This document shows positions 7,752 through 13,743 of a stretch of 64,000 bases of DNA, in pieces (the first letter of the stretch is position 1; each line of letters begins with the position of its first letter). The stretch lies in NCBI GenBank assembly GCA_000002435.2, contig CM018792.1; one strand, 5' to 3'. A program made the position numbers and the translations under genes. The DNA is from Giardia intestinalis. Lineage: Eukaryota. A model generated the notes under the pieces. That model made no database searches. It was not told the origin of the DNA and saw only the letters and a list, made by a program, of their open reading frames with translations.

Positions 7752-8807
7752 TCACATATCATTAGATCCTATTTTCTCATCGAAGGGACCATACATTACG
7801 CGCTGGAGGGGCGGGAGGTTGCGCTCGTAGCGATCTCGGTCCAGAATATTACAGGACTTATTACAATTAGCAAGGAAAGGGTCTTGAAGAGCATCTGCAG
7901 CTGTTATGCGGGCTTCAGGACTATATTGGAGAAACTTAGCGATAAACTGCTTTTCCTCGGGCCGTACTCCATGCCTTTCAAAAAGAGTATGCATATACGG
8001 CTGAGTAGGAGGGCTGTAGTCCTTGCCGCATAGATTGATGAACGACCCATGCCAATCCGTGACACCTGGGTCTGTATCATTGGGCAACCGGCCTAGAAGG
8101 TCGGCTATCTTTGCGGGTATTCTGGACTCTTCTGCTTGAATCACTGCCGTTTGGATTATCATTTCAAAGAATGTCAGCCCAATGCTCCACATGTCAGAGC
8201 TCTGTCCCACTTCGAGGGTGCTTCCAAAGACCTCTGGGGGCCTATAAATGGGGGTCCACCGAAAACCAGGTCCAGTGTATACTATTGATGGGCCACGGAA
8301 TCGGCCAGTGATCAGTGACAGTCCAAAATCCGTTATCTTAAAGACGGAAGATCCATTGTTGTCCTTTATAAGAATATTGTCTGGCTTTAGATCAAAGTGA
8401 CTTATGTGGTTACGATGAAGATATTCTAATCCCAGCAGGATTTGGTAGTAGGCAGTGCGTCTGTCTTCAGCAGTTAGGCTATGTCCTGAGTTAAGAATAG
8501 ATTTTAAACTGGTGTTACAGAGCTCTAGGGCGAAACAGAGACGTGCGCCGTGGAAAAAGATAGACTTGCAACTAAGAATGTTTGGGTGAGACAGCTCTCG
8601 GAAAGCCAGAATTTCCATGAATTTGTCTCCTGTAAGACCCATTTTGCTCTCTTTGCCCTCCTTAATGCGCTTTATTGCATACCATGTCTTCGTTTGTTTA
8701 TGTTGGCAGCGATAGACGTCTCCGTATGTTCCGCTCCCTATGAGAGTAACCAGATCGGTGTACTCTTTTGCGCCACTTTCGTCGGGCCGCAAGTCTGGAA
8801 AAATCAT
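7752..8807 (-). CDS. CMGC/CDK-like serine/threonine kinase with a divergent catalytic loop (HFD instead of HRD)
   Basis: ATG verified (cat 8805-8807). Motifs: GSGTYGDVYRC, AIKRIK, HFDLKPDNILI, DFGLS, a WTPIYRPPEV activation segment, and a C-terminal ...PEARITAADALQDPFL typical of CDK/CMGC C-lobes. No ankyrin tail. Confidence 0.7.
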   Translation of the reverse strand: MIFPDLRPDESGAKEYTDLVTLIGSGTYGDVYRCQHKQTKTWYAIKRIKEGKESKMGLTGDKFMEILAFRELSHPNILSCKSIFFHGARLCFALELCNTSLKSILNSGHSLTAEDRRTAYYQILLGLEYLHRNHISHFDLKPDNILIKDNNGSSVFKITDFGLSLITGRFRGPSIVYTGPGFRWTPIYRPPEVFGSTLEVGQSSDMWSIGLTFFEMIIQTAVIQAEESRIPAKIADLLGRLPNDTDPGVTDWHGSFINLCGKDYSPPTQPYMHTLFERHGVRPEEKQFIAKFLQYSPEARITAADALQDPFLANCNKSCNILDRDRYERNLPPLQRVMYGPFDEKIGSNDM

Positions 8808-9166
8808 AGAGAGCTTTTTGGTTTAGGGGATGTGCCTTTACTCTGTCTCGACGAGCCAATCCTGCTAGTCACGGTCGAGCAGGCCATATCTTTCATTCGC
8901 CTGCCACCCATCTCCCGTGCAGCGCTGTCCCTCCGGGCACACGACAGGGCGCCTCGTGTGCGACCAGGCCAGCGGGCTTCTCCCAGGGGCAGCCCTCGGA
9001 GTGGGAGTCTCAGAGAGGAGGCCGCCGGGGCACCCCCACCCGCTGCACGCAATCCGGTCCACACCACAGCCTCTCTACTGATACCCCTGTTCGTGGTGAG
9101 CGCGCTTGCAGTAACCTACCAGACCGGCAAGTGCGAGACGGTCGGTAGCACAGAGATCTGCACCCA

Positions 9167-11098
9167 GTGCAGGGCCGGGGCGTCCCGGTCGACGGCTTCT
9201 GCCGGCCCCCCGGCTCCATCCAGGCCGCGGCAGCCGGGTGCACCAAAGCGGGTGGGGCTGCCCTCGACAAGACGGCAGCCACCTGCGGGAAGTGCGGCGA
9301 CGGGTACTTCCTCTTCATGGGCGGGTGCTACAACAAGGATGCACACCCTGGCAGTGACATATGCACACAGGCTGAGGGAGGACTGTGCACTGAGTGTAAT
9401 ACAAAGAACGGCCTGTTCAAGAACCCGGCTGCAGCACCGAAGCCTGGTAATGAGTGCATTCTGTGCTGGGACACGGTGGGAGATGGCGCGACAAAGGGAG
9501 TAGAGAACTGCGCCACATGTACAGCACCGGGGAATGCAGGAGTAGCTACATGTGATACCTGTCAAGATGGATACTACAAGGACTCTCTGGTATGTATGCA
9601 GTGTGATCAGTCTTGTCTGACCTGCGATGGAAGTGGTCCGAATCAGTGCACCTCTTGTAAGGAGGGGAAGTACCTGAAAGGGACTGAGTGTGTAGACAAA
9701 GGTACGTGTAAGACTGACTACTACCCCGATGACACTAGCATGACCTGCGTTGCCTGTAGCACCATACAAGATTGCACAGCATGCACAATGGACCAGTCCA
9801 CGGGGAAGCCAAAGTGCACTAACTGCGGTAGTCAGAAGATCCCCAGGACGACCCTCGACGGGACCTCGACCTGTGTGGAAAATTCTTATGCTGGGTGTCA
9901 AGGCACAGACAAGGAGCTGTTCATGAAGGAGGACCAACCGGAGTGCCTGCTGTGTGGAGATGCTACAACGGGAACAGATCCGAAAGATAAAGGCGTCGCT
10001 AATTGTAGGACATGCACTAAAGCCAGCGCTACTGGAGCCGCACCGGTCTGTGAGACATGCAAGGAAGGATACATTAAGAATGGAAATGGTGCGGGCGCCA
10101 CGTGTGAGGCTTGTCATCAGAACTGTGCCACATGTTCTGAAGCTACGACAGAAAATAAGTGCCTGACCTGCAAAGAGGGGTTCTTCCTGGCCGGCACCGG
10201 CGAAGGAAAGTGCATCTCGTGCGAGAATGGTAATGATAGTGGCTACAGCGGGCTTGCAGGATGCCTCTCTTGCACAGCCCCAGCCGCCCCGGGCCCGGCC
10301 AGCTGCAACCGCTGCAAGATCGGCTACACGCTACAGGGAACAACGTGTGTGAAGACCTGCGAGGATGAGACTGCCTGTGGGGGGACCTCTGGGGCCTGTG
10401 ATGCCATAGTGATCGGTGCCAATGGAAAGGAGCTTCACTACTGTTCCTATTGTGGAGAGGCTAATAAGTATCCTATCAACGGTGTCTGTGTTAGTACTGG
10501 TAATGAAAATGGGAATACTTGTGCTAAAGGTGTATGTACACAGTGCACTACGGGATACTTTATGTACATGGGAGGCTGTTATAAGGTGACAGAGGTGCCG
10601 GGTAAGTCCATGTGCACAAAGGCAGGCGATGGTGTCTGCACAGAGGCGGCAGCCGGGTACTTCATCCCTCCCTCGCCCACCAAGGACAAGCAGTCCGTGT
10701 TGGCATGTAGTAACCCCCTTGGTGTCGAGCTGGCTGGTCAGAAGGCATACGTGGGGGTGGATGGCTGTTCACAGTGTACAGCCCCAACAGCTCCATCTGA
10801 TGCTGGCATGACCCCCGCTGTGTGTACCTCCTGTGACAGTGATAGGAAGCCCAACAAGGATGGCAGTGGGTGTGTGCTGTGCTCTGTGAGTGACTGCAAG
10901 AGCTGTGTGGTGGATGATGTGTGTGGGGAGTGTGTTGATGGATACAGTCTAGACAATGGTAAGTGTGTGTCTATGAGCACCAACAGGAGCGGGCTCAGCA
11001 CTGGTGCCATAGCAGGGATCTCCGTGGCTGTGGTCGTCGTCGTGGGGGGCCTCGTGGGCTTCCTCTGCTGGTGGTTCCTGTGTAGGGGGAAGGCGTGA
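9167..11098 (+). CDS. variant-specific surface protein (VSP); 5' end appears disrupted, so possibly a pseudogene
   Basis: Many CxxC motifs, two GGCY motifs (FLFMGGCY, YFMYMGGCY), a C-terminal TM helix (IAGISVAVVVVVGGLVGFLCWWFL) and the invariant CRGKA* tail. AGTGAAC follows 8 nt after the stop. The codon at 9167 is GTG, not ATG. A signal-peptide-like segment (SLLIPLFVVSALAVTYQTGKCE...) lies upstream at ~9072-9165 in another frame with no ATG. Confidence 0.75.
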   Translation: MQGRGVPVDGFCRPPGSIQAAAAGCTKAGGAALDKTAATCGKCGDGYFLFMGGCYNKDAHPGSDICTQAEGGLCTECNTKNGLFKNPAAAPKPGNECILCWDTVGDGATKGVENCATCTAPGNAGVATCDTCQDGYYKDSLVCMQCDQSCLTCDGSGPNQCTSCKEGKYLKGTECVDKGTCKTDYYPDDTSMTCVACSTIQDCTACTMDQSTGKPKCTNCGSQKIPRTTLDGTSTCVENSYAGCQGTDKELFMKEDQPECLLCGDATTGTDPKDKGVANCRTCTKASATGAAPVCETCKEGYIKNGNGAGATCEACHQNCATCSEATTENKCLTCKEGFFLAGTGEGKCISCENGNDSGYSGLAGCLSCTAPAAPGPASCNRCKIGYTLQGTTCVKTCEDETACGGTSGACDAIVIGANGKELHYCSYCGEANKYPINGVCVSTGNENGNTCAKGVCTQCTTGYFMYMGGCYKVTEVPGKSMCTKAGDGVCTEAAAGYFIPPSPTKDKQSVLACSNPLGVELAGQKAYVGVDGCSQCTAPTAPSDAGMTPAVCTSCDSDRKPNKDGSGCVLCSVSDCKSCVVDDVCGECVDGYSLDNGKCVSMSTNRSGLSTGAIAGISVAVVVVVGGLVGFLCWWFLCRGKA

Positions 11099-11105
11099 CT
11101 CAGGT

Positions 11106-11112
11106 AGTGAAC
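11106..11112 (+). promoter_or_regulatory. polyadenylation signal AGTGAAC (AGTRAAY consensus) 8 nt downstream of the VSP stop codon
   Basis: tga(11096-11098)ctcaggtAGTGAACgctc. This is the characteristic Giardia poly(A) signal just after a stop. Confidence 0.6.
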
Positions 11113-11310
11113 GCTCCGTTGGTTGTTAGTGCTCAGTGAGTGTTTGCTGTCCATCCACCCGGCGTTGCTGCGTGTAGCGAGCCGTGCTGTGGTAAAGCTT
11201 TCCGCGCCTTCTCGGAGTCAGCGGGTCTCATCTTAGTCCGTATCTATAGAGATAGCGAATAGATCTCCATTAGGAAACAACTCTTCTTTTCTCCAAAATA
11301 TATTCTCCAG

Positions 11311-13743
11311 ATGAGCAGAGCTTGGTTTGCAGCAGCTCACTCTGGAGATGTTTGCACACTTAGAAGCCTCATGGACACCTACATTAGGAGCAGAGATGAG
11401 AACGGAGAGACAGCGCTGTTAATAGCCATACGGGCAGGCCATTTGAATGCCATCCAGCTTCTGGCAGTACACGAACTTACAACAAAAAGTCTGGCGGGAG
11501 TATCACCTCTAGTTGCCAGCGTACATCAGCGACGAATGGATATGGTCCATATCTTGATACGTAATCCTCAGCTGCTAACAGTGCAAGACATGGATGAGGC
11601 GATTGCTGCAGCGCACCAGGAAGGCGCCTTTGAAGATATTCTGGTCCATACGCGTCGCATAGTGGCAATATTAAACGACGCGTCAAGTCTCTTGAGTACG
11701 CGAAGCCCAACAGCAACATCTTTAAACGGCAGCAAAGCAGGGTTCGAGGCCCAAGGACTTGGTGGGACCATGCATACTAATATGAATACGCTCTTCGGCA
11801 TCGGTCTAGACACCCCCCAATTTGATTTTGGAAAATCTAATAACCTCAAGCAATCTGATATTAATGAACCTAGTTCCTCTCTAAGAACTGCTGAAACAGT
11901 CAATGTAACTGGTGAAAGCGTTAACAACTGCTTAGATTTAGTATCCGGGGTCCCGCTGGACCTACAGGATATTGAGCTACCTGACATGTTGGACGCATCA
12001 CTTGCTCGAGAAGATCAAGTCCAAGAGGAGACCTCTACCTCTGAGCAAAATATTGATCTTGCAGAGTCATTACAAAATTCATCTAACACAAATTTGAATT
12101 CTCAACAGAGTCCCAGGCAAGACACTCCAACGAATTTGTCAAATATAGAGTTGGCAGAAAAGATTGAGGATCTAGACTTTTCTGATGATAAGGACCAAGG
12201 TCTTACAGTGCTCGACGTGGTAGATAGCTTTCAGGGCTCTGTTCAGTCTTCGTCTGTTTGCAAACAAACCCCTCTTCCAGAGAATAGTAGGTTTCTCAAC
12301 ATCACTCCGTGTGCCAGAACAGCAAATGGCAGCGAGATTCAGTCGACAGAGGCCCCTGCTATGTCTATTCGGGACTTTAGCCCCCGTTTTAGAAAGAATC
12401 CAGATGCCTTCCAACTACTCTCTGGAAAGGGCTCAACAAAGCTAAAGAATATGCTCCACACTCCAGCTCCAATGTGCACGACGTTGAGCCATGACTCCGG
12501 CGATAGTGCACACTGTCCCTGCTGTATTCAATATGTAGAGCAAATTTCTACTATGCAAACACTTATAGCTAATCTAGAAACGCGTATATCTGGGCTATAC
12601 GGAAAGATAAAGGAAACCACCGCGGATCGTGACAAGTGGAAAGAGCACGCCGAACGTGCCACCGAAGAAATCAGAGCGAAGAAGCAATACATTCATACAT
12701 TAGAAGAACGGATTGCCAAAATGGTCACTGAGTTGTCGAGAGATGCTCAGAAGCAATGTTCTGGCATGGACCCAAATAAGAACACGGACCTAATCAATAA
12801 CGCTATTATTGGGAATTTACACGGTGTATATGCATATATAAGCCAAGTAGGTCATGTGAATGCGTGCGGGCAAACAGCCCTCATGCTGGCCGCAAAGAAT
12901 AATCACCCAGAGGTAGTTGCAGTTCTAGCTCCCCTGGAGGCGAAAAGGTATTGTTGTCACGGGAAGACGGCCTTAATGTATGCATCTGAGGCCAATTCTG
13001 TTGAATGTGTTGAGATTTTACTGGACCTTGAAAAGTGCATGGCATCCCCAAGCACAGACTTGCTGGAATCGGCTTATGATTATGGAGAAGCTGCTTCTGT
13101 TTCTGGTCGTACAGCCCTTATGATAGCAGCAAAGGTTGATGCGATTCAGGTGGCAAAGCTTCTTGTGGAAGATGAAGCGGGGATGCAGATGACCAACGGC
13201 GTGACTGCTCTTATGATTGCTATCTCTAAAGGGCACGAGCAAATTGCACATATGTTGCTACTAAAAGAGAGTGGGCTAGAGACCAAAGAGGGGGACTTTG
13301 CCCTCAGACGTGCAGTGCACAAGAGGATGCGGGGAGTGATCAGCACCCTTATGTACGCAGAGGAGCGGCTGATGAACAGCGTGGGGTGGACACCAATGAT
13401 GATTTACACTATGCTTAGCGATTTGGACTCAGTCAAACAATATGCAGCGTCTGATTACGGGAAGAAAGACATAAATGGTTGCACTGCCTTGATGATCAGC
13501 GTCCGTCTTCGTTTGACGCCAATAACTAAATTTCTAGCGGCAAAGGAAAGCGGGATCATAGACCTACAAGGCCGCACAGCTTTGATCATCGCCGTTCAAC
13601 TAGAAAACATATCAGCTATCAAGGTGCTTGCACCTTTTGAGCGGAACATTAGATCACTGTCTGGCCTTGCGCCACTAGACTACATACCGCAAAAATCTCA
13701 GAACAAAAAGCGTATTAAAGAGATACTAACCAAAGCCTATTAG
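11311..13743 (+). CDS. ankyrin-repeat protein with a central coiled-coil (protein 21.1-like)
   Basis: ATG verified at 11311. N-terminal ankyrin repeats (GETALLIAIRAGHLNAIQLL..). A central acidic/coiled-coil region. A C-terminal block of at least 6 ankyrin repeats (GQTALMLAAKNNHPEVVAVL, GKTALMYASEANSVECVEILL, GRTALMIAAKVDAIQVAKLL, GVTALMIAISKGHEQIAHMLL, GCTALMISV.., GRTALIIAVQ..). Confidence 0.75.
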   Translation: MSRAWFAAAHSGDVCTLRSLMDTYIRSRDENGETALLIAIRAGHLNAIQLLAVHELTTKSLAGVSPLVASVHQRRMDMVHILIRNPQLLTVQDMDEAIAAAHQEGAFEDILVHTRRIVAILNDASSLLSTRSPTATSLNGSKAGFEAQGLGGTMHTNMNTLFGIGLDTPQFDFGKSNNLKQSDINEPSSSLRTAETVNVTGESVNNCLDLVSGVPLDLQDIELPDMLDASLAREDQVQEETSTSEQNIDLAESLQNSSNTNLNSQQSPRQDTPTNLSNIELAEKIEDLDFSDDKDQGLTVLDVVDSFQGSVQSSSVCKQTPLPENSRFLNITPCARTANGSEIQSTEAPAMSIRDFSPRFRKNPDAFQLLSGKGSTKLKNMLHTPAPMCTTLSHDSGDSAHCPCCIQYVEQISTMQTLIANLETRISGLYGKIKETTADRDKWKEHAERATEEIRAKKQYIHTLEERIAKMVTELSRDAQKQCSGMDPNKNTDLINNAIIGNLHGVYAYISQVGHVNACGQTALMLAAKNNHPEVVAVLAPLEAKRYCCHGKTALMYASEANSVECVEILLDLEKCMASPSTDLLESAYDYGEAASVSGRTALMIAAKVDAIQVAKLLVEDEAGMQMTNGVTALMIAISKGHEQIAHMLLLKESGLETKEGDFALRRAVHKRMRGVISTLMYAEERLMNSVGWTPMMIYTMLSDLDSVKQYAASDYGKKDINGCTALMISVRLRLTPITKFLAAKESGIIDLQGRTALIIAVQLENISAIKVLAPFERNIRSLSGLAPLDYIPQKSQNKKRIKEILTKAY

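Follow-up and report, generated by a model that had tools for sequence, protein, structure and literature searches.

The question raised by this locus is whether a VSP gene that both the 2007 annotation and Adam et al. (2010) list as 'complete', with 593 aa counted from the first ATG, is able to specify a secreted VSP at all. The gene lies within a window of 64,000 nucleotides—the whole stretch of DNA that we analysed—from Giardia intestinalis WB, of assemblage AI. Its CRGKA-tailed open reading frame (9167-11098) is 100% identical from codon 51 onward to XP_001707790.1, which protein matches VSP69/GL50803_33783 (Adam et al., 2010, BMC Genomics 11:424; Additional file 1), this being the sole catalogue entry to fit 593 aa, 60.7 kDa, 71 Cys, and 26 CXXC. 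The same authors assigned VSP69 to chromosome 4 and to clade I, with the remark "No Inr" and with no linear-array flag. The gene is indeed solitary, outside of any head-to-tail VSP array (the arrangement to which pseudo-VSPs tend, but which is no requirement for them), and has the following neighbours:

7752-8807, minus strand: kinase gene
11311-13743, plus strand: 21.1 ankyrin gene

The VSP69 protein of 2007 is present in only the old 2007-derived 'eukprot' source and is absent from the current NCBI/UniProt set; and in our list of homologue hits the same holds for all the WB VSPs annotated without a leader, whereas the leader-bearing ones are present in the current sources.

The body of the gene and its 3' end comprise these features:

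9146..9148, plus strand: TAG closing the body frame upstream, as read in the sequence
9167..11098, plus strand: open VSP body, with a GTG start, 643 codons, 75 Cys, 27 CXXC, and the Pfam VSP domain
9317..9319, plus strand: first ATG of the body frame, codon 51, the M of FLFMGGCY; the start annotated in 2007, giving the 593-aa product
11003..11095, plus strand: membrane anchor GAIAGISVAVVVVVGGLVGFLCWWFL plus the CRGKA tail (11081-11095), a conserved C-terminus
11096..11111, plus strand: TGA, then ACTCAGGTAGTGAA with AGTGAA (11106-11111), in the sequence a polyadenylation signal of the Giardia type

From the GTG at 9167 to the TGA at 11096-11098 the frame is free of stop codons and ends in ...FLCWWFLCRGKA, which result bears out the claim of an earlier note that the body lies in a single frame. 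The Cys-rich body, with the many CXXC motifs that are a trait of the family, matches PF03302 (VSP) with E = 2.4e-53 and 181.9 bits (cut-off 31.4), and the hydrophobic anchor is followed, as in other VSPs, by CRGKA (...GAIAGISVAVVVVVGGLVGFLCWWFLCRGKA* at 11003-11098). In Giardia, the polyadenylation signal AGTRAA lies no more than a few bases from the stop codon, a further VSP trait that is present here as TGA ctcaggt AGTGAA. The same note had located the first true ATG some 50 codons into the body, and had seen no signal peptide there; this, too, we confirmed, as the product from the ATG at 9317 begins with MGGCYNKD... and has none, while the 60 nt before that ATG contain just 33% A+T and lack the initiator consensus.

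The region where a VSP start would be expected, for its part, consists of the following elements:

8838..9068, plus strand: GC-rich 5' flank, with 66-72% GC from ~8900, common to other start-less VSP copies (blastn, GC profile)
9069..9074, plus strand: GCC TCT replacing the ATG in the alignment with intact relatives; the PyAATGTT initiator is also missing
9069..9110, plus strand: signal-peptide remnant ASLLIPLFVVSALA in the leader-frame translation, matching the MFQLIPLFVASAL leaders of the WB VSPs P0011, P0012, and P0017

Positions 9069-9179 encode the leader-like peptide ASLLIPLFVVSALAVTYQTGKCETVGSTEICTQCRAG in a frame different from that of the body, the intact WB paralogues having MFQLIPLFVASAL...KCETVGSTEICTQC(R/K)AGGVPVDGFC. 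From the start position on, the leader region is identical to an intact P15 VSP at 111 of 147 positions (76%), which degree of identity indicates a genuine homology and not a chance resemblance. A canonical leader upstream, in another frame and with no ATG in that frame, had been proposed, and both the translation and the scan for ATGs uphold it. The further proposal that TCT occupies the place of the ATG stood in part: the ATG of the relatives falls at two sites one codon apart, so that the proposal is right for leaders of the MLLI type (on TCT, 9072-9074) and wrong for those of the MFQLIPLF type (on GCC, 9069-9071), the latter being also where a gapless DNA alignment places the ATG of the P15 gene. 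At that codon WB and three DH copies have GCC where the intact P15 gene has its ATG (gCAATGTT); the second codon is TCT in WB, TTT in the loci L001, L018, and L020, and ATT in L017. The aligned start site of WB reads CAGCCTC and so departs from the PyAATGTT initiator described by Adam et al. (2010), which element is reported to be needed for efficient expression and without which VSPs have been proposed to be nonfunctional cassettes or remnants (PMC2996952).

Nor did we find a rescue of the missing start. The motif YAATGTT is absent from the plus strand between 7272 and 12754; on the plus strand of 8808-9320 an ATG occurs just twice, at 8830, which belongs to neither frame, and at 9317, and the leader frame has none. 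The 5' flank (8838..9068) contains neither a leader-frame ATG nor an AT-rich initiator, the 60 nt that precede 9069 having an AT content of 0.28, compared with 0.65 ahead of the neighbouring 21.1 gene. We rejected a start at an upstream ATG, since the sole one available in the leader frame (the nearest, at 8700) lies inside the oppositely oriented kinase gene, and we likewise rejected a rescue by splicing, in that the CTRAC..CAG motif is absent from 8500-9500. As to the annotated 749-aa ORF of DH contig 182, WB and the other copies have ACG in place of its start ATG. By homology and hydrophobicity, then, the ATG-initiated signal peptide of 14-17 aa that is a trait of the VSP family is lacking; and a VSP with no proper signal peptide and no rescue by another start codon is what Xu et al. 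(2020) classify as a psiVSP.

This start-less state is older than the WB lineage. The DH and ENA syntenic genes of AII isolates run in one continuous frame through ...TTAFLLIPLF, without an ATG and with an in-frame TGA ~29 codons upstream, and the same start-less 5' end recurs at three further AII loci; the blastn homology to two DH loci (L017 and L018) begins at 8898-8900, with an extra short shared block from ~8838. Because the AII gene is start-less and yet in one frame, the loss of the start codon would predate the frameshift of WB and be independent of it; and because the condition is shared with AII, it is no artefact of the WB assembly. The order of events set out below would follow from such comparisons.

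Two lesions beyond those listed in the earlier note came to light in the same region:

9103..9113, plus strand: site of a 27-nt in-frame deletion, with ~nine codons (A-C-Q-x-D-G-D/N-H...) lost after the leader, from the alignment with P15 (L019), L020, and the N-termini of paralogues
9117..9119, plus strand: TAC (Tyr) for a conserved TGC (Cys), specific to WB; TGC in all the relatives aligned

The exact position of the 27-nt deletion is ambiguous between short direct repeats, the gap with respect to P15 being 27-30 nt; L020 retains the segment that WB has lost.

The body has had a history different from that of its flanks:

9400..11000, plus strand: body segment divergent from the AII syntenic gene, at 45-76% identity per 100 nt versus 98-100% in the flanks

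Between WB and DH the identity amounts to 98-100% in the flanks and to only 45-76% in the VSP body, with a dS inside the gene from 0.27 to more than 0.75, or saturated; since the two bodies are not orthologous, we gave up testing for constraint by dN/dS between the two. Within WB, VSP69 has a twin in a VSP array, VSP68/GL50803_15123 (P0121), to which it is identical over 524 aa, and it holds exact blocks of 23-58 aa in common with intact and leaderless VSPs, those shared with the intact VSP P0002 measuring 23-54 aa. A divergent body in near-identical flanks, together with such a twin, indicates that the locus exchanges sequence with paralogues; and on these identities the body is a replacement, acquired by recombination or gene conversion after the AI/AII split. 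Of the earlier suggestion of a silent cassette or donor, it is this exchange with other VSPs that was substantiated, through the contrast of body with flanks, the twin, and the shared blocks.

Whether selection maintains such an exchange is another matter. The start-less module might serve to park VSP bodies that are traded with expressible VSPs, as a silent donor or acceptor that enlarges the antigen repertoire, and we regard this explanation as possible, if rather unlikely. The replacement of the body between fixed flanks, the 524-aa twin inside a VSP array, the blocks shared with P0002, and the same start-less 5' module on different bodies at at least four AII loci would all accord with it, and such a role has been proposed in the literature for VSPs without an initiator element and for pseudo-VSPs. 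Against it, the data support a receipt or sharing of sequence by the locus and give no direction of transfer; the published work describes antigenic switching in Giardia as occurring without DNA rearrangement, by post-transcriptional or epigenetic means; neutral gene conversion in a large family would produce the same pattern with no need of selection; and decay is still in progress in WB, as evidenced by the Tyr codon and the frameshift.

That frameshift could be placed precisely:

9177..9180, plus strand: G4 run, a 1-nt deletion (-1 frameshift) between the leader and the body frames, from alignments

Six related sequences—four AII syntenic contigs, one DH paralogue, and the intact P15 gene—have G5 here, indicating a 1-nt deletion in WB; sequence by sequence, we read G5 in L001-L004, L017, P15 (L019), and L020, and GGAGG in L018. 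In 533 aligned bases between WB and the four AII syntenic contigs, G4 versus G5 is the single indel. The prediction that the two frames would meet around 9165-9185 by way of a 1-nt indel was accordingly correct, and the alignment with intact and related VSPs that had been recommended for locating the shift pinned it to this run. The G4 of WB rests on the assembly of the window and on what the 593-aa length in the Sanger-based annotations of 2007 and 2010 implies. The WB-identical short-read contigs end at 8953-9012 or at 11054-11378, and therefore none spans the run; exact-protein look-ups with the 643-aa and the 593-aa products gave no match, a homologue search with the N-terminal 298 aa recovered no WB-type fragments, and a metagenome scan for the frame junction, with either G4 or G5 allowed, returned 0 matches.

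It is accordingly to be weighed whether the assembly or the base calling went wrong in a GC-rich homopolymer, the true WB sequence being G5 in one frame as in AII, and we deem this improbable. The site is a G run within a tract of 66-72% GC, the related sequences have G5, the region is lost from the short-read assemblies, and the PacBio draft contained homopolymer frameshifts, corrected only with the backing of 10 or more Illumina reads (Xu et al., 2020), all of which would favour such an error; conversely, a G5 would put the first ATG of the joined frame at 8700, for a predicted product of ~799 aa, and the WB-only change of Cys to Tyr 60 nt upstream bespeaks an independent decay in the lineage. 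Since the gene would have no ATG even with G5, as in AII, an error of this kind leaves the verdict of pseudogene unaffected.

That VSP69 might be expressed by unconventional means—as the leaderless 593 aa from the ATG at 9317, from a non-AUG start, or through splicing to an upstream exon—is scarcely credible: the open frame, the membrane anchor, the CRGKA tail, and the polyadenylation signal are all intact and the catalogues did count a 'complete' VSP of 593 aa, but that product has no signal peptide, the A+T-poor stretch before its ATG contains no initiator consensus, the branch-point/3' splice-site motif of Giardia is absent where it would be needed, the pseudo-VSPs of G. muris are essentially untranscribed (Xu et al., 2020, Microb Genom; PMC7641422), and GL50803_33783 goes unmentioned in the literature searched, in which the texts of the papers named neither this gene nor GL50803_15123 and the searchable supplements (of proteomics, VSP-switching, and RNA-seq papers) yielded no gene-level match, only numeric coincidences.

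VSP69 is thus, very probably, a genuine pseudo-VSP, descended from a normal VSP whose 5' end decayed stepwise and whose body was overwritten by members of the family; the earlier verdict of a pseudogene is upheld by the missing ATG and PyAATGTT, the 1-nt and the 27-nt deletions, the exchange of Cys for Tyr, and the start-less state in AII. The ancestor would have been an ordinary VSP gene with 5' flank, leader, Cys-rich body, membrane anchor, CRGKA tail, and polyadenylation signal. Before the AI/AII split it would have lost the ATG with its PyAATGTT context (now GCC TCT) and the 27 nt after the leader; later, in the WB (AI) lineage, the conserved Cys codon would have become TAC and the G5 run G4, which last change would have left the leader remnant and the body in separate frames. 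With these 5' lesions a secreted VSP cannot be made, the only ATG-initiated product being the 593 aa from 9317 with no signal peptide, and we infer that VSP69 is not expressed. An open frame of 643 codons in a gene so long without a start might suggest constraint; the body, however, would be a recent arrival by recombination or gene conversion, in its details unrelated to the AII body at the same locus, and with ~1-2% divergence an ORF could plausibly remain free of stops. The body would then owe its open frame to its youth at the locus, where family members have overwritten it, and not to expression.

VSPs without a signal peptide have been re-annotated, giving 208 pseudo-VSPs versus 133 VSPs (PMC7000408; PMC7641422), and VSP69 would fall within the class so re-annotated by Xu et al. 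(2020), with which the absence of its 2007 protein from the current NCBI/UniProt set is consistent. The gene is already catalogued and the class already described, with ~200 pseudo-VSPs known in the genome, so that the case is real but ordinary. The annotation of the locus ought to read pseudo-VSP, in place of the 593-aa 'VSP' given in the 2007 gene set, and beyond that its significance is small. It does furnish a clean and dated example of the death of a VSP, in which the loss of the start preceded the AI/AII split while the frameshift and the loss of Cys followed later in WB, and of a dead body still open to overwriting by the family, being in this respect consistent with the published idea of pseudo-VSPs as a recombination reservoir, of which it is no proof.

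The start-less 5' module itself occurs at no fewer than five loci in genomes of AI and AII, where the VSP bodies attached to it are unrelated; in L020 it also adjoins an unrelated flank, the homology starting only ~11 nt upstream. That this module—GCC for ATG, usually with the 27-nt deletion—is a conserved and mobile 'off' module strikes us as very doubtful; were it true, gene conversion would move it about, and antigen genes could be retired and re-activated at the DNA level, beside the post-transcriptional switching.

Comparison with known systems places VSP69 close to the psiVSPs of WB (Xu, Jex & Svard, 2020, Sci Data 7:38) and of G. muris, which likewise have the CRGKA tail, lack a proper signal peptide or start codon, and exchange segments with other VSPs. 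Most psiVSPs, however, belong to head-to-tail arrays and have an abrupt beginning within the coding sequence, whereas VSP69 is solitary between the kinase and the 21.1 ankyrin genes and has preserved ~230 nt of its 5' flank together with a leader remnant that can still be recognised, by virtue of which its individual lesions are readable. Its twin VSP68 is, like VSP69, a clade I 'No Inr' entry in Adam et al. (2010), where the out-of-frame leader, the missing ATG, the 27-nt deletion, and the G-run frameshift of VSP69 are undescribed. The intact VSPs of the MFQLIPLF and MLLI types (among them P0011, P0012, P0017, and P0002 of WB, and gene P0030 of P15 ACVC01000123) share the architecture of VSP69, with 55-68% full-length identity and a nearly identical N-terminal block, KCETVGSTEICTQC(R/K)AGGVPVDGFCRP...GYFLFMGGCY; unlike VSP69, they show CAATGTT at the start, carry nine additional codons behind the leader, have the conserved Cys, and read through in a single frame.

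In Trypanosoma brucei, the donation of VSG sequence into an expression site, with the formation of mosaic VSGs, is demonstrated and drives switching, whereas the switching of Giardia is described without DNA change and a donation from the VSP69 locus would be hypothetical. The resemblance lies rather in the archive itself: the VSG pseudogenes of T. brucei, like the pseudo-VSPs, form an extensive stock of defective genes for surface antigens, segments of which recombine with those of other family members.

The gene, which lies in a window of Giardia intestinalis WB DNA (assemblage AI), comprises the following elements:

9069–9179, plus strand: translation of a leader-like peptide, ASLLIPLFVVSALAVTYQTGKCETVGSTEICTQCRAG, in a frame other than that of the body
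9146–9148, plus strand: TAG closing the body frame upstream
9167 to 11096–11098, plus strand: VSP body ORF from GTG to TGA (643 codons, 75 Cys, 27 CXXC)
9317–9319, plus strand: first body-frame ATG, the M of FLFMGGCY

The body ORF matches the Pfam VSP family (PF03302, E = 2.4e-53) and ends in a hydrophobic anchor followed by CRGKA, with ctcaggtAGTGAA directly 3' of the stop codon. With the frame-repaired protein as query, the search for homologues returned XP_001707790.1 ('VSP [Giardia lamblia ATCC 50803]', 593 aa), which is 100% identical and whose N-terminus is an internal Met of the body frame, this product of the old annotation having no signal peptide. Four VSPs of 593 aa appear in Additional file 1 of Adam et al. 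(2010; PMC2996952). One of them, VSP69 (GL50803_33783), is a clade I gene on chromosome 4, scored 'No' for Inr, outside the linear arrays and catalogued at 60.7 kDa with 71 Cys and 26 CXXC; for the window's 593-aa product we computed 60.66 kDa, 71 Cys and 26 CXXC, values that VSP69 alone of the four fits. The 90% cluster of XP_001707790.1 includes a twin, XP_001707761.1 (P0121), identical in its first 524 residues, which fits VSP68 (GL50803_15123; linear array, 60.4 kDa).

Past 9179 the leader frame is nonsense, ending at a stop at 9501–9503. From the start of the minus-strand kinase gene (8807) to 9320 the plus strand holds just two ATGs, at 8830 and 9317, the former belonging to neither the leader nor the body frame; this inventory and the translations therefore bear out the earlier note, which had described a body open from a GTG at 9167, an internal ATG in FLFMGGCY and a leader without an in-frame ATG. 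Intact relatives begin M(F)QLIPLFVASALMAACQQDGNH..TC..KCETVGSTEICTQC(R/K)AGGVPVDGFCRP..., and the ATG of the intact P15 gene (gCAATGTTGTTGATA...) aligns to a GCC codon, at 9069–9071 in WB, that three DH copies share. The placement of TCT at the start site thus holds for MLLI-type leaders, which would set the ATG one codon further, on TCT 9072–9074 (TTT in most AII copies, ATT in DH contig 182), but not for the P15 alignment. Neither candidate codon is an ATG, the PyAATGTT initiator consensus is absent, the region upstream of the gene is GC-rich, not AT-rich, and no intron signals able to rescue the gene were found. Two further ORFs probably owe their existence to GC-rich codon bias: one of 333 aa, ATG-initiated and antisense to the body (9116–10117, minus strand), the other of 317 aa in the leader frame (8550–9503, plus strand) and overlapping the kinase gene start.

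Look-up of the flanking kinase led to the syntenic locus of isolate DH (assemblage AII, GCA_000498715.1) and to three ENA contigs that carry it. Over a 533-base alignment exactly one indel separates WB from these four contigs, GGCC-GGGGCG versus GGCCGGGGGCG, and the five-G run also occurs in a DH paralogue (L017), in the intact P15 gene (L019) and in a further AII paralogue (L020). The suspected 1-nt indel where the frames meet is thereby placed at the G run 9177–9180, from which one G would have been lost. The AII genes of the locus read in a single frame from leader to CRGKA (...HTTAFLLIPLFAVSTIAVTCQADKC...), yet they also lack an ATG, an in-frame TGA lying about 29 codons upstream. In addition, 27 nt (about nine codons) just past the leader, flanked by short direct repeats, are missing in WB and the DH copies compared with intact genes and are retained in L020, while WB alone has TAC at 9117–9119, a conserved TGC in the others. 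From this distribution across WB, AII and intact genes we infer that the start loss and the 27-nt deletion would be older than the AI/AII split, and that the Cys-to-Tyr change and the frameshift would have come later, in WB specifically.

Because ATG and initiator element are absent, the upstream region is GC-rich and the frame is broken, the gene would be incapable of yielding a secreted VSP; the missing start and initiator, the frameshift, and the start loss in the assemblies of other isolates argue for the pseudogene that the earlier note had proposed. An assembly error at the G run, in a region of 66–72% GC, seems to us an improbable source of the frameshift: the Sanger-based 2007/2010 annotations give 593 aa, and with five Gs the first ATG in frame would be expected to fall at 8700, for a product of about 799 aa. 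According to Xu et al. (2020; PMC7000408), homopolymer frameshifts in the PacBio draft were corrected solely where Illumina support existed; short-read contigs identical to the window all end at 8953–9012 or 11054–11378, and the frame junction had zero matches in the metagenome scan. Public short-read (Logan) assemblies with 100% identity never span the VSP between those end points, and the contigs likely break off because the 5' module is GC-rich, the 3' end is shared and a twin copy exists. Such an error would leave the pseudogene reading unchanged, since independent assemblies of other isolates also lack the start codon.

At L017:745–2994 (DH contig AHGT01000182.1) one start-less module copy carries ATT as its second codon; in its GC-rich flank, 60 codons upstream, an ATG opens an annotated 749-aa 'VSP' (P0020) whose non-VSP N-terminal extension is probably an annotation artefact, because ACG occupies that position in WB (8851–8853) and the other DH copies. 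A segment of about 35 nt (tgctagtcacggtcgagcaggccatatctttcatt, 8860–8897) in the 5' flank of WB and the syntenic DH locus is missing from the other two DH module copies (L017 and L018). At L020:1462–1530 (ENA ERZ28528424 NODE_39), on the contig that also carries the syntenic locus, some 35–40 kb away, the AII VSP P0019 reads ...CYTT-AFLLIPLFVASALMAACQQDGNH, GCC TTT CTA replacing ATG; its upstream flank is unrelated and AT-richer, module homology starts just about 11 nt before the GCC, and the start-codon site looks like a gene-conversion tract boundary. Many 'partial' VSPs of other isolates (P0013, P0053, P0055, P0059, P0068–P0071 and others of assemblage B, and P0044) start VNDPAGVSIDSLCRP, cut at the AGGVP(V/I)DGFCRP motif, the site of the WB frameshift. 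P0044 runs out of frame (LPDRQVRDGR.LRDLH.VQGRG) and is in the VSP frame again from PQAAAAGC, and so carries a frameshift of independent origin; breakpoints seem to recur in the GC-rich N-terminal block.

Per 100 nt, WB and DH are 98–100% identical in both flanks, 82–97% over 8800–9399 and 45–76% over 9400–10999 except for one bin of 88%, with synonymous divergence within the gene from 0.27 to saturation; conserved flanks, divergent body and high synonymous divergence together indicate that the body was replaced after the two lineages separated. The WB body equals that of VSP68 over 524 aa, a near-identity that indicates recent duplication or conversion; the identical stretch is encoded by 9317–10888, and P0121 (chromosome 4 linear array) differs solely in the last approximately 70 of 593 residues. 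The WB body also has exact blocks of 23–58 aa in common with intact VSPs (P0002) and, likewise, with leaderless-annotated ones (P0006, P0057). Together with 170–230 nt of GC-rich flank, the start-less 5' module also stands in DH at L018 (the head of a VSP array) and L017 (contig 182), joined to bodies just about 60% identical to each other.

The gene is a catalogued member of a well-described class; what is new here is the precise definition of the lesions and of their ages relative to one another. VSPs without an initiator element were proposed to be non-functional, as recombination cassettes or discarded remains (Adam et al., 2010), and those without a signal peptide were re-annotated as 208 pseudo-VSPs alongside 133 VSPs (Xu et al., 2020; PMC7000408). 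Among the homologue matches listed, leaderless-annotated WB VSPs, this gene included, are absent from current NCBI/UniProt sources and leader-bearing ones are present, which fits the demotion of the gene. Pseudo-VSPs of G. muris show essentially no transcription and share in sequence exchange with intact VSPs (Xu et al., 2020; PMC7641422). As to the silent cassette or donor also envisaged in the earlier note, evolutionary exchange is evident in the mosaic body, but a donor role in the trypanosome style is not supported, because switching in Giardia is described as post-transcriptional and without DNA rearrangement (PMC2996952 and a further source); segmental exchange of the pattern seen here has been described before in both VSPs and pseudo-VSPs of Giardia (PMC2996952; PMC7641422).
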